DNA from: Escherichia phage mEp010
Direction: 5' to 3' (one strand)
Sequence record: PP180001
DNA: 53,791 nucleotides
The position numbers and the translations under genes are program-made. Position 1 is the first letter of the stretch, and every line of letters begins with the position of its first letter. The notes beneath the pieces were generated by a model. The model saw only the letters and a program-made list of their open reading frames with translations, ran no database searches and was not told the origin of the DNA. Positions 44,192-53,664 of the stretch are shown in pieces.

Positions 44192-44896
44192 ATGCGCAGC
44201 ATACCTACAGAAATGATTATTGATTCCGTCGATGCTGGAGTCGGCGCGGTAATTGACTTGTTTGAATTAGACCTCACGCCCCTGGGTGGCGAGGTTATCC
44301 GCTTCCATTCCGGCGCGAATGGCTATTACGGCCCGGTTATCTGGAAGGGAGTGACTTACAACAGCTACCCTATCGAGGCCACTGGCTTCGAAATGAAAAA
44401 CGAAGGCGTTTACTCGCGCCCGCAAATGGTAGTAGCCAACATTGGCGGGCTAATCACCGGGATGAACAACGATTTTAACGACCTGCGAGGAATGAAGGTT
44501 ACGCGCCGCCAGGTGGAAGTAAAATATCTGGACGCTGTCAACTTCCCCAATGGCAACCCGGATGCAGATCCGTCTATCGAGGCTGTATCTTTTTACGTCG
44601 TTGAGGCGATGAGCGAAGAAACAGCCGACCAGGTGCAATATGAACTTTCAACGCCAATTGATGCCGACAAGGCGGTTATCCCTGGGCGCACAATCCTCGC
44701 TGACGTTTGCCAGTGGCAATACCGGGGCGACGGTTGCGGATACAGTGGCGGCCCTGTAGCTACAGATAAAGACGAATCGACCAGTGATCCAAAACTGGAT
44801 AAATGCAGCCACCGCCTGAGCGGTTGCCGTTTGCGTTTCCCGCACCCCAATCCGTTACCAATTTCATGTTTCCCCGGATCAAGCAAGGTCGGTTAA
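44192..44896 (+). CDS. L: Minor tail protein L
   Basis: Resembles lambda gpL, including Cys cluster CQWQYRGDGCGYSG. Confidence 0.85.
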   Translation: MRSIPTEMIIDSVDAGVGAVIDLFELDLTPLGGEVIRFHSGANGYYGPVIWKGVTYNSYPIEATGFEMKNEGVYSRPQMVVANIGGLITGMNNDFNDLRGMKVTRRQVEVKYLDAVNFPNGNPDADPSIEAVSFYVVEAMSEETADQVQYELSTPIDADKAVIPGRTILADVCQWQYRGDGCGYSGGPVATDKDESTSDPKLDKCSHRLSGCRLRFPHPNPLPISCFPGSSKVG

Positions 44897-44898
44897 TT

Positions 44899-45630
44899 AT
44901 GGCACTTGAAGATAAAATGATTCGCTATGCGGCAGCCCACCCGCGCGAGGAAGTGTGCGGGCTGGTGATAGATAACGATTATTTTTACCCGTGCGCTAAC
45001 GTGTCTGAAACGCCGCACAACAGCTTTAAAATCTCGCCTGACGATTATATCAAAGCTGACGAATTAGGCGTTATAACAGCCGTTTTCCACTCCCATACTG
45101 ACAATTCATTGGTATTGTCAGCACGGGATCGACAACAGCAGGTTATTTCCGGCCTGCCGTGGTTTTTATGCTCCGGTGGCAGGGTTAGAAAATTCCGCCC
45201 GGTAGCGCACCTGTTAGGCCGTAAATTTGAGCACGGGAAAACGGATTGTTACTCGCTTTTCCGTGACGCCTATCACCTTTGCGGCGTGGATCTTCCTAAC
45301 TTTGAGCGCCACGATGGGTGGTGGCTGCGTGGGGAAAACCTGTACATAAAGAACCTGCCATTGAACGGTTTTTTCATGGTTGACGCGCAAAGCATTCAGC
45401 CAGGTGACGTGATTATTCGCCAGCCGTTTAAAGGCGCTGACCCATGCCACGCGATGATTTACCTGGGCGATAACACTGTTTTGCATCATGACAATGCCGG
45501 ACTGTTAAGCCGCCGAGAGCAAATGCGGCCCGCGTATGTTCGACAGACCAATTCAATATGGAGATCTGACAAATGCTCAAATTTAGACTTACGGGCAATC
45601 TTCGAAGATATTACGGCAAGGTGTGTTTAA
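44899..45630 (+). CDS. K: Tail assembly protein K (JAB/MPN plus NlpC/P60-like)
   Basis: Resembles lambda gpK; Met33 of track ORF. Confidence 0.8.
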   Translation: MALEDKMIRYAAAHPREEVCGLVIDNDYFYPCANVSETPHNSFKISPDDYIKADELGVITAVFHSHTDNSLVLSARDRQQQVISGLPWFLCSGGRVRKFRPVAHLLGRKFEHGKTDCYSLFRDAYHLCGVDLPNFERHDGWWLRGENLYIKNLPLNGFFMVDAQSIQPGDVIIRQPFKGADPCHAMIYLGDNTVLHHDNAGLLSRREQMRPAYVRQTNSIWRSDKCSNLDLRAIFEDITARCV

Positions 45631-46103
45631 ACGTTGATACGCCAGCACAAGGACTTCGCTTATTGACCGCACAGAATCAGGAGTTCAAGAAGGCTTTTTT
45701 AAGCACACCATTGCGCTTACGAATTGCCGGGAAAGATTATGACGAAAAGACCGCGCCAGCAGCGGTTAACAGTAAATACCCTGACGGGACTACCGTCATT
45801 GTTGCGCCAGTGGTGGAAGGCGGTATTGCAGGGATTGGCGTTGTAGGCTGGATTTTGATCGGTGTTTCGGTTGTTAGCGTTGCGTTCTCGATCTTCATGT
45901 CACGCAACATGAAGATAAAAACATCAGCAGAAAGCGCACAAGATAACACCATATCTAACAACACATACACCAGCGTTGAAAACAAGGTTGGCCAGGGTAG
46001 ACCAGTGCCGATCCTGTTGGGTGAAATGAAAATAGGTTCAAACGTCGGATCGTTAGGCATAGACACAAGTAATAACAAAGACGCCTTAGACGTTGTAAGT
46101 TAA
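45573..46103 (+). CDS. I: Tail assembly protein I
   Basis: Resembles lambda gpI, Gly/Ala/Ile-rich hydrophobic centre; overlaps K as in lambda. Confidence 0.75.
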   Translation: MLKFRLTGNLRRYYGKVCLNVDTPAQGLRLLTAQNQEFKKAFLSTPLRLRIAGKDYDEKTAPAAVNSKYPDGTTVIVAPVVEGGIAGIGVVGWILIGVSVVSVAFSIFMSRNMKIKTSAESAQDNTISNNTYTSVENKVGQGRPVPILLGEMKIGSNVGSLGIDTSNNKDALDVVS

Positions 46104-46116
46104 CAGGAGAAAAGCC

Positions 46117-49100
46117 ATGAGTAGCGGCGGCGGCAAAGCCAAAACACCAACATTATTAAACGATAACCTGTATCATAAACAGTTTTATCGTGTTTTAGAC
46201 ATTCTCAGTGAGGGGCCAATATACGGCCCTGTAAACCAGAAAGCGCCATTAAACAGCGTAATGCTTAATGACACGCCTATCACTGACGCCAACGGTAATA
46301 CATCAGTCCCCGGCGTTAGCGTGGCGTGGCGCAATGGTACGGCTGACCAGTCACCAATCAACGGCTTCAACGCCATTGAATCAACCGTTATTGTCAACGC
46401 AAAAGTAACTCACGATACACCAATAATCAGGACCATTTCAGATCCCAACGTTAACCGCGTAAGGCTGAATCTTGGCGTCGATTCTCTGGTTCAGTCAGAT
46501 GATAAGGGCAATCAGTACAATACATCCGTCACGTTGATGGTTGATGTTAAGCCTTCATCTTCAACAACGTGGTCACTGGTTAAAGATATTCACATCGGCC
46601 CGGGTAAACAAAGCGGCGAGTACCTCGAAGCGCACATCATCAAAGCGCCGGATGAAAAACCGTTTGATATTCGCGTTCGTCGCGTAACGCCGGACAGCAC
46701 GGGAGATCTTCTTCACAATGATACCAGGTGGAGCAGTTACAGCGAGATAATCGACGATAATTTATCTTATCCTCACACCGCTGTAGCAGGCGCGGTAATT
46801 GACCACGATCAGTATACTGACACGCCGACACGCACCTATCACATGCGTGGTCTGATTGTTGATGTCCCTGATAACTACGACCCGGAAACGCGCACGTACT
46901 CAGGTTTATGGCTTGGTGGCTTTAAAAAGGCGTACACCAATAACCCTGCATGGCTTTTCCGGTATCTGGTTAAAAATGAACGCTTCGGGCTTGCCCGCCA
47001 CGCTGGTTACATCGACATTGATGACGGAGCACTGTATACGCTTTCTCAATACTGCGACCAGTTGGTAAACGACGGTTACGGCGGCTTTGAACCTCGCATG
47101 ACGCTTAATGCTTACATCACTGAGCAAATGAGCGCCCGCGACCTACTGGATAATATTGCAGGCATGTTCCGTGGTATCGCGTTATGGGACGGGCAGCGCC
47201 TTACGGTGATGATTGATGCACCGCAGGATCCAATTGCCACCATCACAAATGCCAATGTCGTTGATGGCGCGTTTACTCGTTCAAGTATCGCCCGCGCAGA
47301 ATCTTACAACGCCGTGATCGTGTCATGGACTGACCCGGAAAACGGTTGGGAACAATCAAAAGAATACGTGGCAGATGACGAACTGATCGCCCGCGATGGT
47401 TACAACGAAACCACGTTGGAGGCTTTCGGTTGCACGTCACGCGGGCAGGCGTACCGCGCTGGCAAATGGCTGATAGAAACAGCAAAGCGCGAACCATCAA
47501 AATTCACGTTTAAAATGGCCCGTGACGCAATTCACTTCACACCAGGGGATATTATCGAGATACTCGACAATAACCGCGCTGGCGCTCGTTTGGGCGGTCG
47601 TATCGTGGCGAATAACGGGAAGGTTATAACTGTAGACAAGGTTGATTCTGACCTGGTGGCGGCTGGTGACACTATCAGCTTGCTGGATAGCGACGGCAAG
47701 TTTAAAAAACATCAGATCACTGGAGTTAACGGAAACAATATTACCCTTGCAGCCGCGCCAGCATGGATTCGCAACGGAACCGTATTTGCTGTTTCTACTG
47801 AATCCGCAAAACCTGTTCTGTGTCGAATCACCAGCGTAGCAGAAACCGAAAATAACAGCGTGTACACCATCGAGGCTGCGCAGCATGATACGCACAAACA
47901 GGCCGTAGTTGATGAAGGCGCGATCTTCGAGGTAAACAACGACACGCTTAATCACTTCCGCGTGCCGAACATTGAAAACCTGAAGGTGTTAAATGTTGGT
48001 TCTGAAACTGTTCAATGTCGCGCTACATGGGAAACACAGACGACAACGCATCGCCTGACCTTTGAGATCCGCGTATATAACGCGGAAGGCCGAGTGGTGG
48101 CAGCTTATGAAACAACGAATTACCGCTATGATTTTTATGGCCTCGATGCTGGCAGCTACACGCTTGGTATTCGCGGTCGTAATGACACTGGCATGAAGGG
48201 GGCGGAAAGTATTGTGGACCTAGTTATTGGTGCGCCAGCGGCCCCGATTGGAGTTAATTGGGTTCCCGGTGTTTTCCAGGCAACAGTGTACCCAATCAGC
48301 AAAACAACCCTGACCACTGATACGGCATATGAGTTCTACTTCTCAGGTGAAAACCAGATCACAGACCCATCAAAAGTAACCACGCTGGCGCAGTTCACCG
48401 GGCGCGGCTACCAATGGACGTTTGGCGGCATGAATACGGGCCACACATATTACGTTTATGTGCGCACACGCAATGCTTTTGGCGTGTCTGACTTTGTGGA
48501 GGCATCAGGTAAGCCTACAGAGAATTTTGATGAAATCAGTGACTACGTCACAAAAGACGTGATTAATTCAGAACAGTTTAAAGGGATGATTGGCGACATT
48601 AAAGATCTAGGCGACCGCGCAGACCTTATCGAAAGCGCTACAAATGACCTTAAAAACGCTACTGACAGCCTCAAAACTGCAACTGATAACCTGACAAACA
48701 TCACTGAAGATTTGAGGACTGACACGGACGGCCTAATCACAGAAACTGGGGCCATAAAAGCTGATACGGACACACTGAAAAAAGAAACGGAAGATCTTTA
48801 TAAAAAGGTTGGGGAAAACACCGATGGTATTGGACAACATGAGGTAAGAATTGACTCGCTAGAGGTATCCAGCGAAAGAATCGACAGCGAACTGGCGCAA
48901 GCAAAAGCAAGCCTGCAAAACGCATCTTTGGCGCTAATCAATAACTCGCTTGCACAGACCAACACGCGGGTTACGCTCACTGCACAGTACAAGAAAGGGA
49001 AATCAGAAACCAACGCGCAAATTGACCGCATTGACAACGTTATTGCTGAAGAGAAAAAGGCTACAGCTGAATCACTGAAAACCATCACTGCAGAAATGAA

Positions 49101-51240
49101 CACGATGGATTCTAACCTCAAAAGTCAGATCTCCAGTGTGGAACGTGCAGTGGCTGACGAAACAAGTGCCCGCGCTGAAGCAATTAACAGCGTGAACGCA
49201 TCAATAAGCAATCTCGACAAGAAAACCGACGCCAGCGTGAACCGCCTTGATCAAGCCATCGCAGACGAAACAAGCGCCCGCTCACAGGCTATCAGCGGCG
49301 TGAATGCGTCAATAAGCAATCTTGAAAGCAAAACAGACGCCAGCGTTTCACGTCTTGATAAGGCAATATCTGACGAAACGCAGGCAAGAAGCGACGCAAT
49401 AACAGAGGTCAAAGCTGATTTAACAACGCTCGAAAGTAACACAAACGCCAGCGTTAAACGCTTAGACCAGGCTATTGCTGACGAATCAAGCGCCCGTGCT
49501 CAGGCTATATCTGGAATCAGCGCCGAACTTGGCAAGGTTGAAAATAACGTTGACAAGAACAGCGACGAAATAAGCCAGACCAAAGCAAGCCTGCAAAACG
49601 CCTCGATTGCGCTGATTAACAACTCAATCGCTCAAACCAACACGCGTGTTACGCTTACGGCCCAATACAAGAAAGGACGCAGCGAAACCAACGCGCAAAT
49701 TGACCGCATTGACAACGTTATTGCTGAAGAGAAAAAGGCTACAGCGGAAGCAGTTAGCGTGGTGAAAGCATCGATCACGGATCTTGATAAGAAGACTGAC
49801 GCGAGTGTTTCCCGTCTCGACAAGGCTATCGCTGACGAAACCAGCGCACGCAGCGAGGCGGTAAGCGACGTTAACGCAAGCGTTTCAGCGCTCGACAAGA
49901 AAACCGACGCCAGCGTTAAACGCCTGGACCAGGCAATTGCAGATGAGACAAGCGCAAGAACTGAAGCTATCAGCGGTGTGAACGCAAGCATTAACACGCT
50001 TGAAAGCAACACTGAATCTGAAGTTAACAGAATTGACCAGGCAATCGCTGACGAGGCCAGCGCCCGCGCTCAGGCCATCAGCGGCGTGAACGCATCAATT
50101 TCCACGCTTGATAGCAAGGTTACAAGCAACGTGACCCGCATCGACAAGGCCATTGCAGACGAAACGAAGGCACGCACTGACGCAATAAGTAGCCTTAATT
50201 CATCGCTTACCAGTACGATTAACTCGAAGGTGTCTGAGGTATCAACGGCGCTTTCTACACATGAAGCATCAAGCGCGGAAAAATTCGGCCAGATCTCAGC
50301 GTCTTTCGAATCCGTAAACTCAAGTATTACAGAATGGTCGCAGGCCATGACAACCGCTGACGATGCATTGTCAACCAAAATTGATCAGTTAACAGTAACC
50401 GTTAACGGGAACACAACGGCGATAGAGACAACATCGAAAGCGTTAACAGACTTCAAAGGCAATGTTGATGCGTCGTACTCTATCAAGCTGGCAACCGACA
50501 ACAACGGCATGAAGTACGCGACAGGTATGTCGCTTGGCCTTACTGGTGACGGCACTAACTTTCAATCGCAGTGTATTTTCCTGGTTGACAGGTTCGCGCT
50601 AATGACTGCGGCAAACGGCACATATCAAACGCCTTTCTATATCGAAAATGGTGCAATGTATGTACGGGAAGCGTTTATTAAAAACGGTTCAATCGACAAT
50701 GCAAAAATAGGCAATGTCATAACGTCCTACAACTGGAACGGCAACGATCAAGGGTGGGCGATAGTTAAAGATGGCTGGGCTGTATTTAACAACGTTACAG
50801 TACGCGGCACGGTATACGCTAATGCTGGGGTGTTTAACGGTACTGTTTACGCAAATGACGGTAAATTCTCTGGAACAGTGGAGGCAAATTCATTTATCGG
50901 TGATGTTGCAAATATGTACACAGGATCTGACGTTAGCAGGTCAAACAATGGTGTACTTCAAAAAGTAATTACATATACAGACACAACAGCAGCAGCCCAC
51001 AGGAGACATATTTGCGTTATGGCAAACGTTAAAGGTAACGGTGCTTGCACAGTAAACATTAACGGATCAGAAAAGGGCTTGTCTGTAAATGATAATGAAC
51101 GGCTTATCATGCACTCTGCGGCGGTATATGGACAGAACGTTACAGTAGTGATTAGCATATCCGCTCAGAATGGTAGGGGTGCGTATATATTCTCACCGAC
51201 CGTTATAGTATCGCGCGGCTCTGGTTCATTCTCTGGATAA
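46117..51240 (+). CDS. J: Central tail fibre / host specificity protein J (expanded, 1707 aa)
   Basis: N-terminal and C-terminal thirds resemble lambda gpJ; ~540-aa internal coiled-coil repeat insertion. Confidence 0.85.
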   Translation: MSSGGGKAKTPTLLNDNLYHKQFYRVLDILSEGPIYGPVNQKAPLNSVMLNDTPITDANGNTSVPGVSVAWRNGTADQSPINGFNAIESTVIVNAKVTHDTPIIRTISDPNVNRVRLNLGVDSLVQSDDKGNQYNTSVTLMVDVKPSSSTTWSLVKDIHIGPGKQSGEYLEAHIIKAPDEKPFDIRVRRVTPDSTGDLLHNDTRWSSYSEIIDDNLSYPHTAVAGAVIDHDQYTDTPTRTYHMRGLIVDVPDNYDPETRTYSGLWLGGFKKAYTNNPAWLFRYLVKNERFGLARHAGYIDIDDGALYTLSQYCDQLVNDGYGGFEPRMTLNAYITEQMSARDLLDNIAGMFRGIALWDGQRLTVMIDAPQDPIATITNANVVDGAFTRSSIARAESYNAVIVSWTDPENGWEQSKEYVADDELIARDGYNETTLEAFGCTSRGQAYRAGKWLIETAKREPSKFTFKMARDAIHFTPGDIIEILDNNRAGARLGGRIVANNGKVITVDKVDSDLVAAGDTISLLDSDGKFKKHQITGVNGNNITLAAAPAWIRNGTVFAVSTESAKPVLCRITSVAETENNSVYTIEAAQHDTHKQAVVDEGAIFEVNNDTLNHFRVPNIENLKVLNVGSETVQCRATWETQTTTHRLTFEIRVYNAEGRVVAAYETTNYRYDFYGLDAGSYTLGIRGRNDTGMKGAESIVDLVIGAPAAPIGVNWVPGVFQATVYPISKTTLTTDTAYEFYFSGENQITDPSKVTTLAQFTGRGYQWTFGGMNTGHTYYVYVRTRNAFGVSDFVEASGKPTENFDEISDYVTKDVINSEQFKGMIGDIKDLGDRADLIESATNDLKNATDSLKTATDNLTNITEDLRTDTDGLITETGAIKADTDTLKKETEDLYKKVGENTDGIGQHEVRIDSLEVSSERIDSELAQAKASLQNASLALINNSLAQTNTRVTLTAQYKKGKSETNAQIDRIDNVIAEEKKATAESLKTITAEMNTMDSNLKSQISSVERAVADETSARAEAINSVNASISNLDKKTDASVNRLDQAIADETSARSQAISGVNASISNLESKTDASVSRLDKAISDETQARSDAITEVKADLTTLESNTNASVKRLDQAIADESSARAQAISGISAELGKVENNVDKNSDEISQTKASLQNASIALINNSIAQTNTRVTLTAQYKKGRSETNAQIDRIDNVIAEEKKATAEAVSVVKASITDLDKKTDASVSRLDKAIADETSARSEAVSDVNASVSALDKKTDASVKRLDQAIADETSARTEAISGVNASINTLESNTESEVNRIDQAIADEASARAQAISGVNASISTLDSKVTSNVTRIDKAIADETKARTDAISSLNSSLTSTINSKVSEVSTALSTHEASSAEKFGQISASFESVNSSITEWSQAMTTADDALSTKIDQLTVTVNGNTTAIETTSKALTDFKGNVDASYSIKLATDNNGMKYATGMSLGLTGDGTNFQSQCIFLVDRFALMTAANGTYQTPFYIENGAMYVREAFIKNGSIDNAKIGNVITSYNWNGNDQGWAIVKDGWAVFNNVTVRGTVYANAGVFNGTVYANDGKFSGTVEANSFIGDVANMYTGSDVSRSNNGVLQKVITYTDTTAAAHRRHICVMANVKGNGACTVNINGSEKGLSVNDNERLIMHSAAVYGQNVTVVISISAQNGRGAYIFSPTVIVSRGSGSFSG
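48880..50250 (+). repeat. In-frame tandem repeats inside J (about ten ~36-aa/~110-bp units; plus a ~170-bp block duplicated 678 bp apart at ~48904 and ~49582)
   Basis: Units of form DASV.RLD.AIADETSAR..AISGVNASIS.L.SKT; antisense track ORFs here are repeat artefacts. Confidence 0.7.
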
Positions 51241-51270: not shown

Positions 51271-51519
51271 TTAGTAGTTAGCTACACAATTAGAAGGGCT
51301 ACCGATGCGGCGCATATTGTGATCGAGTTCATGACACCATTGACCAGTATAAGGCAGTTTTTCAGTGTCATAGACAAGATGACCACTACCATCATAAACA
51401 ACATCCTGTGGAATTACTCCGCTATTCGGCAGGTTATGCAATGCAGCCTCTTTGTCAACAGCACAACCAGTAAGAGCTACAGCCGCAGCGAACAAAACCA
51501 CTTTGAATACGTTTTTCAT
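51271..51519 (-). CDS. Small lipoprotein (moron; candidate superinfection-exclusion or outer-membrane factor)
   Basis: 82 aa; signal peptide with lipobox LTGC; opposite strand between J and side tail fibre gene, the slot where lambdoid phages carry lom/cor-type morons. Confidence 0.65.
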   Translation of the reverse strand: MKNVFKVVLFAAAVALTGCAVDKEAALHNLPNSGVIPQDVVYDGSGHLVYDTEKLPYTGQWCHELDHNMRRIGSPSNCVANY

Positions 51520-51696: not shown

Positions 51697-53664
51697 ATGA
51701 TTTACACAACTGGAACAATTGCCATCAACGGCAACACTGTTACAGGCACGGGGACAAACTTTTCCGCGCCGCTTTCCCTCATCCGTGTAGGGTGCACGCT
51801 CATTGCCATCGGCAATCCTGTACAGATCTTTACCATTACGGAAATCAAAAACGGTACTGAACTATCAGTGACGCCAGCGGCTAACCCTGCGATCCCTGCC
51901 GGAACAAAATTTAGTATTCTGCTTTCTGATTCGATCTCAGTTGATGGGCTTGCCCAGGACGTAGCTGAAACGTTGCGCTACTATCAGAGTAAAGAAACAG
52001 AAGTAGCTGAGGCGCTTGAATGGAGTCAGGACCATATCGCAGACAAGATTGGGCTTGGTGCTGAACACCGAAACTGGCCTGATTGCAACGATCCTACTGG
52101 TTATATAGGTTTTTGTCGTGCTGTAGAAGCTGAATCACGTAACTTTCCGTCGATTGCATCTGGCGAAGTTTACTTGGTGGGTTGGCTTGCGCGTGGTGAC
52201 AATGCCGTTATTAACGGCTGTTTCGTTGGTACTATAAGCCTTTCACTGTACACATACAGATATAACCCAACAGATGGTACGAAAGTATGGACACGACACG
52301 CAAGAAAAGATGAGGTAAGCAGATTGACCCAGAGTGTATCTGAAACTGCTTTGCGGGCCGCAGGAGGGAAGCAAAAATTTGTTCTGTGGGATGGGGGTGA
52401 TGGGAATACTCTATCTTGGGGTGTTTGGGATGATGATGTTAGTCAATGGAGTCCGTTAGCAATAGCGCAGGGCGGTACTGGTGCGCTTGATGCTTTAACT
52501 GCTAGGAACAATCTAGGGGTGGGCGTGGGTGACAGTCCTCAATTCAGGGATGTGACTCTATCACGCTCAACAGATAACTCATCTGGCTGGGTATCTGGTG
52601 GTATACAAAGATCCGTACTTTTGGGATCTGACGGTACTACACGTGCAGAAGGTTTATTTTATGCAGAATACCAACAAGGTGAACCAACACAAATAACGCT
52701 TGCTGTACATGGAGTTAACGAAGGTTATGGCTATTTATGCTTCAATACAAGGGGGCAGATTTTAGCAGAGACAGCCATTTTAAGATCAACATACAATAAT
52801 CCACTTCTTATTAAAAGCAGCACACCAACAATCTGCTTCAATGAAGTGGAACGCCCTGACGGATCACCTTTTTACAACTTAATTTTTGATAGTGGTAACT
52901 GGCGCATTCAGAAAAACGGTGATGGGTATAATGGTGAATATGTAATAAGCTACAACTATACTTTTGATGAAATGGAGCTTCCCAACCTGCTTACAAAGGA
53001 TATTAAATTAAAATCAAATAATAGCGAAAAATCATTGGGGATTAAAGTAGAAGATAGCACAAATGTTAGCTCGTCAATAAGAGTATTTGGTTACGAAGCA
53101 GAAGGAAGGGAATCAGTTTTTGAGTTCGGTTATCTTAATAAAGAAACATCTGAATACGATAAATACGGCTTTTACTGCCAGCTTAACACTGACAATTCAA
53201 TTCATTTTCAGGTTAACGGCGCTGTAAATTGTACAACCTTAAATCAATCATGTGACCGCGACCTGAAAGACAACATCCAGGTTATAGATGATGCAACTGA
53301 AGCCATCCGCAAAATGAACGGGTACACCTACACGCTTAAGGAAAACGGCCTGCCTTACGCTGGTGTTATCGCTCAAGAGGTCATGGAGGCGCTGCCGGAG
53401 GCTGTAGGATCGTTTACTCATTACGGTAAAGCATTGCAAGGCCCGACCATTGACGGCAACGAGCTACGCGAAGAAACGCGTTACCTCAATGTTGACTATG
53501 CTGCAGTGACTGGCTTACTTGTCCAGGTGGCACGCGAAACAGATAATCGCGTCACCGAACTGGAAGAGGAAAACGCCAGCCTACGCGCCAACATTGCCGC
53601 AATGGATGAGCGGATCGCAAAACTTGAAGCGCTTGTCCTACAGTTAACCGGAAGCGAAAAATAA
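51697..53664 (+). CDS. Side tail fibre with C-terminal intramolecular chaperone (peptidase S74-type) domain
   Basis: 655 aa; C-terminal CDRDLKDNIQ...GVIAQEVMEALPEAV then coiled coil, typical self-cleaving chaperone module. Confidence 0.75.
   Translation: MIYTTGTIAINGNTVTGTGTNFSAPLSLIRVGCTLIAIGNPVQIFTITEIKNGTELSVTPAANPAIPAGTKFSILLSDSISVDGLAQDVAETLRYYQSKETEVAEALEWSQDHIADKIGLGAEHRNWPDCNDPTGYIGFCRAVEAESRNFPSIASGEVYLVGWLARGDNAVINGCFVGTISLSLYTYRYNPTDGTKVWTRHARKDEVSRLTQSVSETALRAAGGKQKFVLWDGGDGNTLSWGVWDDDVSQWSPLAIAQGGTGALDALTARNNLGVGVGDSPQFRDVTLSRSTDNSSGWVSGGIQRSVLLGSDGTTRAEGLFYAEYQQGEPTQITLAVHGVNEGYGYLCFNTRGQILAETAILRSTYNNPLLIKSSTPTICFNEVERPDGSPFYNLIFDSGNWRIQKNGDGYNGEYVISYNYTFDEMELPNLLTKDIKLKSNNSEKSLGIKVEDSTNVSSSIRVFGYEAEGRESVFEFGYLNKETSEYDKYGFYCQLNTDNSIHFQVNGAVNCTTLNQSCDRDLKDNIQVIDDATEAIRKMNGYTYTLKENGLPYAGVIAQEVMEALPEAVGSFTHYGKALQGPTIDGNELREETRYLNVDYAAVTGLLVQVARETDNRVTELEEENASLRANIAAMDERIAKLEALVLQLTGSEK

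Follow-up and report, generated by a model that had tools for sequence, protein, structure and literature searches.

Escherichia phage mEp010 (sequence record PP180001) encodes, in the 53,791-nucleotide (nt) stretch analysed here and referred to as the window, a central tail fibre or tip attachment protein J of unusual length. This protein is probably a lambda-type J in which the alpha-helical shaft (AHS) has expanded to a modular, helical, trimeric rod of ~620 residues, whose length evolves independently of the receptor-binding domain (RBD) that it carries. The observations behind this reading concern the identity of the domains, the anatomy of the repeats, the periodicity of the helix and a polymorphism in copy number that is seen even in near-isogenic pairs of alleles; the trimeric extended geometry, a hinge function for parts of the shaft and any adaptive value of its length are inferred.

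Repeats of this kind in such shafts are not new, and those of mEp010 itself have very probably been noted before. [quoted passage not shown] Whereas that account contains no repeat hierarchy, helical periodicity or isogenic length variants, the present analysis adds a three-tier repeat anatomy with a 3.60-residue periodicity, a set of near-isogenic natural length variants, and the finding that shaft length does not follow RBD class.

Identity of J and Position of the Shaft

Domain and sequence comparisons support the identification of the open reading frame (ORF) product as a lambda-type tip attachment protein J (TipJ). An initial reading made from the sequence only had proposed a J homologue of 1707 amino acids (aa) against ~1130 in lambda, and this is supported by the length of lambda J (1132 aa), by the Pfam domains, which keep the lambda order (FNIII-A_GpJ, Phage-tail_3, Ig_J, Ig_J_second, Phage_Tail_Tip), and by BLASTP, which aligns aa 1-850 with lambda J 1-857 at 38% identity and aa 1432-1702 with lambda J 841-1105 (E 1e-12). 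The protein also matches phrog_31, “central tail fiber J” (E = 0), and a sequence search of the PDB returned the lambda J structures (8iyk and others; E 8.5e-187), together with T1 gp33, the F2-pyocin central fibre PA0641 and the J-like gp24; the Phage_Tail_Tip region matches the lambda J fragment 8jvm_F. No match to Pfam Ig_GpJ_C was found in the C-terminal part. The tail-module gene order L-K-I-J is present in the window, with L, K and I located 5' of J. A J homotrimer at the tail tip is known for lambda, T1 and F-pyocin, and published mass spectrometry detected the J protein of the related phage mEp021 in virions.

The additional length lies between Ig_J_second and Phage_Tail_Tip, domains that are separated by 623 aa in mEp010 and by 26 aa in lambda according to their Pfam boundaries. 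The excess comes to 575 aa when total lengths are compared and to ~597 aa when measured between the domain boundaries, so that the ~540 residues estimated previously were slightly too few. Alignment to lambda J, named in the sequence-only reading as a check, finds matching flanks on either side of the extra region, one aligning to lambda residues 819-857 and the other to 841-867, and splits at lambda residues ~841-857; segment 841-857 matches both edges. Because this piece of the lambda AHS aligns at both edges, the extra sequence is an elongation of an existing helical element and not a foreign domain. On these alignments, the mEp010 shaft is best described as an expansion of the helical shaft that lambda-type J proteins already have. 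The earlier description of an in-frame coiled-coil insertion is retained with respect to the coiled coil, for which the evidence is indirect (absence of proline, periodicities of 3.52 and 3.60, an AlphaFold2 model and lambda-homologous flanks), and abandoned with respect to a foreign insertion.

Repeat Anatomy of the Shaft

The shaft is built from repeats at three levels, the coordinates of which are collected in Table 1. In a self-comparison of the DNA, a 108-nt unit recurs in 7-8 copies at an exact spacing of 108 nt, in two groups separated by a step of 354 nt, and the two copies of a 57-aa block, the duplication of which had been recognised from the start, lie 678 nt apart. Each block together with the degenerate unit that overlaps it occupies 72 aa, the length of two units, and a 10-aa linker separates array 1 from block 2, so that the higher-order unit consists of 10 + 72 + 4x36 = 226 aa (678 nt) and is present twice. 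Residues 930-1371, which hold these repeats, make up 442 aa of the extra length; the rest comprises a nine-heptad run that went unmentioned in the sequence-only reading, a unique segment between this run and block 1, and further unique helical sequence, including a distal helix that is conserved in relatives (C-terminal fragments of the P0009 type are 85% identical). The span of ~48880-50250 assigned earlier to the repeats is correct, and the reading frame is intact throughout.

Table 1. Features of the mEp010 J gene, its neighbours in the window and the J genes of a pair of related phages.
Feature	Nucleotides	Strand	Residues of J	Remarks
ORF of J (tip attachment protein / central tail fibre)	46117..51240	+		1707 aa; ORF listing; no internal stop
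Hub and FNIII/Ig part	46117..48549	+	1-811	Pfam
FNIII-A_GpJ			88-214	Pfam, above curated cut-off
Phage-tail_3			335-492	Pfam, above curated cut-off
Ig_J			609-707	Pfam, above curated cut-off
Ig_J_second			709-811	Pfam, above curated cut-off
Alpha-helical shaft	48550..50418	+	812-1434	623 aa; no curated Pfam domain
Nine-heptad run	48628..48816	+	838-900	L/I at each 7th residue; “TDxL” motif
57-aa block, copy 1	48904..49074	+	930-986	Holds helix-breaking stretch NTRVTLTAQYKKGKSE
62-nt exact direct repeat, copy 1	49006..49067	+		Within block 1
Degenerate 36-aa unit	49012..49116	+	966-1000	Overlaps end of block 1
Array 1, four 36-aa units	49120..49551	+	1002-1145	
57-aa block, copy 2	49582..49752	+	1156-1212	Contains helix break, aa 1175-1190
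62-nt exact direct repeat, copy 2	49684..49745	+		Within block 2
Degenerate 36-aa unit	49690..49797	+	1192-1227	
Array 2, four 36-aa units	49798..50229	+	1228-1371	
Unique distal helix joining shaft to prism	50230..50418	+	1372-1434	63 aa; predicted helix
Phage_Tail_Tip (beta-prism, “central straight fibre” of lambda J)	50419..50829	+	1435-1571	Pfam E 1.4e-38
C-terminal receptor-binding part and stop codon	50830..51240	+	1572-1707	
L (Phage_tail_L)	44192-44896			Upstream of J; domain match
K (Prok-JAB and NlpC/P60, as lambda K)	44899-45630	+		Domain matches
I homologue	45573-46103			Assigned by position and annotation of relatives
Side-fibre-like protein	51697-53664	+		655 aa; Peptidase_S74 chaperone domain at aa 519-570; heptad-rich C-terminal tail
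mEp021 J	L002 2996-8179			Shaft 745 aa
mEp515 J	L003 2996-7177			Shaft 411 aa

Copy number was determined with profile hidden Markov models (HMMs). Tandem Repeats Finder under-reports the array, at only 2.1 copies, because the 36-aa units have diverged. An HMM constructed from 11 units of another prophage (PRO_A) scored eight mEp010 units at 44-72 bits, compared with a maximum of 7.5 bits among 200 composition-matched shuffles. Of the ten or so repeats originally counted, eight are thus clear. One further unit is intermediate (30 bits at aa 1194-1229 with the PRO_A model and 29 bits at aa 1192-1227 with a model of mEp010's own units), while another is marginal (9.7 bits at aa 968-1001 and 13.6 bits at aa 966-1000, respectively). 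Both weak units overlap the C-terminal half of a 57-aa block and hence are not additional to it. Whether the non-helical block core, NTRVTLTAQYKKGKSE, duplicates the prism's first beta-hairpin was considered and rejected, as local alignments to mEp010's own shaft-prism junction and to lambda residues 809-900 gave z = -1.1 to 0.2 relative to shuffles. Antisense ORFs within the repeats (48798-49121, 49632-50012 and 50070-50378, all on the minus strand; 102-126 aa) appear to be shadow frames of the repetitive coding sequence, with no evidence in favour of their being genes.

Helical Periodicity and Predicted Structure

Several features of the shaft point to a continuous coiled coil. There is no proline among 604 residues (aa 831-1434), and hydrophobic residues recur with a period of 3.58 over the shaft as a whole. 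The heptad run peaks at 3.52 (power 110, versus 47+/-12 for shuffles) and both 36-aa arrays peak at 3.60 (power 130, versus 50+/-12), i.e., ~5-7 standard deviations above shuffled sequences; no comparable peak was found in control regions from the N- and C-terminal parts of J. Coiled-coil theory relates a periodicity of 3.6 to a nearly unsupercoiled bundle.

The same pattern is evident in the family-wide consensus of the unit, DASVSRLDQAIADETSARTEAISGVNASISTLDSKT, derived from 88 distinct units in the 19 alleles described below. Positions 4, 7, 11, 22, 25 and 29 are occupied exclusively by I, L, V or M and position 32 is so occupied in 92% of the units, the conserved hydrophobic core positions being spaced 7+11+7+11. 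Residues E14, A17 and R18 are invariant, and position 21 is alanine in 87 of the 88 units.

An AlphaFold2 model of aa 805-1445, computed for a single-sequence monomer, is of moderate confidence and supports secondary structure only. It predicts helix throughout, except at aa ~902-951 and 1175-1190. The first of these regions includes the block 1 stretch given in Table 1, which is of low confidence and non-helical, and the second is the core of block 2 (NTRVTLTAQYKKGxSE), flanked by two long predicted helices of ~210 and ~244 aa. By analogy with lambda, the structure is most likely an elongated version of that phage's trimeric alpha-helical shaft, in which three parallel chains would pack in knobs-into-holes fashion, on the model of lambda's trimeric AHS and the shaft of F-pyocin.

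Shaft-Length Polymorphism in the mEpimmI Family

The mEp010 J gene is 82-89% identical at the nucleotide level to those of the mEp021-group (mEpimmI) coliphages, and ~30 E. coli prophages were also matched. The N-terminal 811 aa share 91-98.5% identity with other mEpimmI J proteins. The window, which is probably the complete genome, is colinear with mEp044 and mEp013 from the first bases and, in its first 25 kb, ~90% identical in nucleotides to the mEp021 group. A word-indexed homologue search with the shaft gave mostly partial J fragments and few full-length proteins; the census was instead drawn from complete genomes, with 18 further J genes extracted from mEp phages and complete E. coli genomes to give 19 alleles.

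The units and blocks of mEp010 recur across all 19, and the mEpimmI J proteins also share its N-terminal part, its heptad run and a variable repeat region that lies between the N-terminal part and a conserved stretch preceding the RBD; the genomes of the group are colinear. Total J length ranges from 1358 to 1935 aa and shaft length from 254 to 831 aa, with 0-13 strong units (array 1 holding 0-11 of them and array 2 holding 0-5) and 1-2 blocks, and the heptad run varies in multiples of 14 aa. The mEp010 allele differs from other mEpimmI J proteins in its 4+4 layout and in an RBD 68-74% identical to those of other LamB-class phages.

The most informative comparisons are those between nearly identical genes. 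The J genes of the E. coli LP-26-E1-261, GN04592 and MS 21-1 prophages (LP26, GN04592 and MS21-1; L009, L016 and L017) differ at 1-4 nt over ~5 kb, apart from clean 108-nt gaps that leave 5, 4 and 3 units in array 2, respectively. Two adjacent LP26 units are 100% identical, which indicates a very recent tandem duplication. A single 108-nt indel likewise distinguishes the J genes of N921 and MIN12. At a larger scale, mEp021 and mEp515 show no mismatch in 4182 nt of J and differ by one in-frame, in-register indel of 1002 nt (334 aa), the ends of which share just 5 nt (GATAA); they are a naturally occurring isogenic pair that differs in shaft length. This J family thus shows documented changes of copy number on three scales, and the suspicion that the repeats are recombination-prone is borne out by the range of 0-13 units, the clean 108-nt steps and the 1002-nt indel. 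Every observed indel keeps the 36-aa or heptad register, which shows structural selection yet is compatible with neutrality of length itself. Expansion, as used here, is relative to lambda and implies no direction of evolution. As a separate observation, the I and J genes of mEp021 and mEp515 are separated by a 567-nt gene (L002 and L003, 2437-3003; annotated in mEp021 as a putative HNH endonuclease) that is absent from the mEp010 window and from the other relatives.

Within mEp010 itself, the units appear old and diverged, being 50-74% identical at the nucleotide level with in-register exact runs of <=17 nt. No exact repeat in the shaft exceeds ~20 nt apart from the 62-nt direct repeat within the two blocks, at which unequal crossover could delete or duplicate exactly 678 nt (226 aa) in frame.

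Related repeats extend beyond these phages. When the shaft was searched exhaustively against 1.84 billion cluster representatives, 151 matched at E <= 1e-3, of which 39 reached E <= 1e-10 and 6 reached E <= 1e-30. Among them is a different J-like protein of 1922 aa (P0028), with FNIII-A_GpJ at aa 92-219, Phage_Tail_Tip at aa 1769-1903 and, between them, a spacer even longer than that of mEp010 that bears related helical repeats; the mEpimmI group is thus not alone in having J-like fibres with long helical shafts. A 2921-aa protein (P0029) shares the repeats, and no J-family domain was detected in it. No match to the exact 1707-aa protein is on record in public assemblies, which hold no independent copy of this allele. 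Many public entries of the J family (P0004-P0011 and P0022) are labelled “partial” and begin or stop within the repeats. It follows that short-read assemblies commonly break at these repeats and that length statistics from databases are biased.

Receptor-Binding Domain and Neighbouring Genes

Clustering of the last 140 aa of J resolved five RBD classes within the family, with lambda J apart. The mEp010 RBD groups with those of mEp013, mEp044 and mEp554, to which it is 68-74% identical over this region. These three phages are LamB-dependent, while mEp021 and mEp515 are OmpA-dependent and plaque-forming (PMC11893012); mEp010 is probably LamB-dependent as well. The C-terminal part of the gene is also 74% identical at the nucleotide level to a tail fibre of Cronobacter phage CSP1. 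In J proteins of the OmpA class (L002, L003, L013 and L015), 160-171 aa extend from the start of Phage_Tail_Tip to the end of the protein, versus 272-294 in the other classes, and a separate C-terminal Ig-like receptor-binding domain seems to be missing.

The idea that repeat number is tied to the receptor or to the class of RBD was considered and rejected. The numbers of strong units are 3-13 in the LamB class, 4-11 in the OmpA class, and 4-13, 7-9 and 0-10 in the remaining three. Each class has short and long shafts, and therefore shaft length and RBD assort independently. Nor is shaft length related to the size of the downstream side-fibre gene (Spearman rho 0.06, p = 0.83, n = 18), the homologous position of which is occupied in relatives by very different fibres of 449 to ~1160 aa.

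Two observations concern other genes nearby. The mechanical ORF for K (44803-45630, plus strand) begins within L; RefSeq prophage homologues are 732 nt in length, which places the start at 44899 (MALEDK...). Downstream of J, an 82-aa lipoprotein with the lipobox LTGC is encoded at 51271-51519 on the minus strand and differs from the Lpp of mEp013 at residue 2 only, a difference likewise reported for the exclusion lipoprotein Lpp010 (PMC11893012).

Comparison With Other J-Like Fibres

Coiled-coil shafts are established in the J-like central fibre of F-pyocin and predicted in that of T1, and lambda supplies the short form of the same element. The AHS of lambda gpJ, residues 809-861, is a three-helix bundle beneath FNIII-2, which flips by ~180 degrees upon LamB binding and is partly converted to beta-strands (PMC11101478). 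In the available structures (PDB 8iyk, 8xcj and others), it lies between FNIII-2 (Ig_J_second) and the beta-prism, as does the mEp010 shaft, although it comprises ~53 aa without repeats, compared with 623 repeat-built residues.

The sole sequence match of the shaft in the PDB is T1 gp33 (9l9p chain S; aa 877-1022, phmmer E 1.6e-5). This J-like protein has sequence-related helical repeats containing “IAxETxAR”, with a period of 33 aa in ~3-4 copies instead of 36 aa, and unlike mEp010 it has neither a block element nor a higher-order duplication. On this comparison the T1 repeat is a related module and not the same one. AlphaFold 3 predicts a T1 gp33 fibre of ~37 nm with an alpha/beta-helix fold, longer than that of lambda, and the repeat part is unresolved in the cryo-electron microscopy (cryo-EM) map (PMC11945409).

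The F2-pyocin central fibre PA0641 has a J-like hub that is homologous to mEp010 J over aa 4-690 (E 4.6e-126). The structure of PA0641 (PDB 25vf) includes a cryo-EM-resolved trimeric coiled-coil shaft, residues 907-1084, between the hub and the beta-prism, a stutter in which was proposed to act as a hinge, and side fibres dock at a kink in the coiled coil (bioRxiv 10.64898/2026.02.24.707460). This shaft is ~175 aa long and made mostly of canonical heptads, repeat arrays have not been reported for it, and the protein carries a separate adhesin, unlike mEp010 J. A PDB query with the mEp010 shaft alone retrieved no PA0641 chain at E <= 1, and the likeness is confined to the hub.

Proposed Architecture and Alternative Explanations

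In the architecture that we favour, three J chains would form one extended, nearly unsupercoiled, parallel trimeric rod, beginning with the canonical heptad run and continuing through two 226-aa units, each comprising a 57-aa block with a short non-helical interruption and four 36-aa units. Fully extended at 0.15 nm per residue, the rod could reach up to ~93 nm in mEp010 and ~38-125 nm across the family, and would hold the beta-prism and RBD far from the tail tip, with the interruptions in the blocks as likely hinges. Its length evolves by in-frame, in-register steps of heptad pairs (14 aa), units (36 aa) and higher-order units (226/334 aa), independently of the attached RBD.

The repeats on which this architecture depends are most unlikely to be a product of assembly, in existence or in number. 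Apart from the earlier-deposited mEp021, the mEp genomes were assembled from Illumina reads with SPAdes/Shovill, and the many J entries that end within repeats illustrate the hazard. Nevertheless, collapse or expansion is improbable because the units are just 50-74% identical with only short exact runs; moreover, the 62-nt repeat is shorter than a read, the frame is intact, the module is found in 18 other genomes, and the independent complete genome GN04592 has identical block positions (aa 930 and 1156) and the same 4+4 layout. The helices might instead fold back at the 57-aa blocks to give a shorter and thicker antiparallel bundle in place of a single-pass rod. The similar lengths of the two predicted helices flanking aa 1175-1190 in the mEp010 allele are suggestive of such a hairpin, and an example is offered by Stf, the side fibre of Ur-lambda, whose distal coiled coil was modelled with six chains. 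We regard this arrangement as improbable: the arrays are grossly unequal in most other alleles (11+2, 8+2, 7+4 or a single array), and so a matched hairpin is not conserved; a single fold would aim the RBD back at the tail; and the solved F-pyocin homologue is a single-pass parallel trimer. It is scarcely better supported, and still unlikely, that the shaft serves mainly to dock other proteins of the virion, for instance the side fibre encoded downstream of J with its Peptidase_S74 domain, and not as a spacer. PA0641 provides a precedent, and the conserved non-helical blocks could be docking or kink sites, but the numbers of blocks (1 or 2) and units vary among phages with the same side-fibre type, the mEp010 shaft has no sequence similarity to that of PA0641, and docking would not account for 0-13 repeated units.

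Several points weigh against the extended trimeric rod or against a role for its length. The AlphaFold2 run is a lone-chain model with a predicted local distance difference test score (pLDDT) of 66 and a predicted template modelling score of 0.23, and the trimer and its extended single-pass geometry are inferences beyond it. Published transmission electron microscopy gives a tail of ~130 nm, with a long central fibre unmentioned. The lambda shaft itself refolds to pass on the receptor signal (PMC11101478), a mechanism that would here have to work over ~90 nm; the lambda fibre also bends aside and its collar, at first 40 nm from the membrane, comes to lie 15 nm from it, a geometry in which a rod of ~90 nm would have to be accommodated. 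Finally, mEp021 and mEp515, with shafts of 745 and 411 aa, both plate on E. coli K-12 via OmpA, so that on this rough host length is not critical, 334 aa are dispensable, and the variation could be neutral. It is accordingly quite conceivable, if somewhat short of an even prospect, that the shaft is a tolerant spacer whose repeats change by replication slippage or recombination, with selection only for frame and helical register and no tuning of reach. The behaviour of this pair agrees with such neutrality, as does the lack of any relation of shaft length to RBD class or side-fibre length. On the other hand, all 19 alleles have a shaft of at least 254 aa, ~10x the lambda spacer, and the unit sequences are strongly conserved; the preservation of register also speaks for constraint, although on structure and not necessarily on length.

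Biological Implications

Length may serve reach through surface polysaccharide, or a larger search radius, or it may be merely tolerated. A more specific idea, which we offer tentatively and consider doubtful, is that the shaft is an evolvable molecular ruler, in which modules of 14, 36 and 226/334 aa, gained or lost in register, set the reach of the tip that binds outer-membrane proteins (~38-125 nm) to the thickness of O-antigen or capsule on gut E. coli, independently of the receptor. If so, the receptor signal must travel ~90 nm along a coiled coil, or be conveyed by a mechanism other than the local refolding seen in lambda, and the mEp021/mEp515 pair makes the idea directly testable.

Through the short helical shaft of J, lambda links receptor binding to the opening of its tail tip, and the mEpimmI version of this element is 5-16x longer and modularly variable, even among phages that are otherwise identical. 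The family thus provides a natural length series for two questions, namely adsorption through surface polysaccharide and the path of the trigger signal. The independent assortment of shaft length and RBD further makes the shaft a candidate for use as an adjustable spacer in engineered phages or tailocins.

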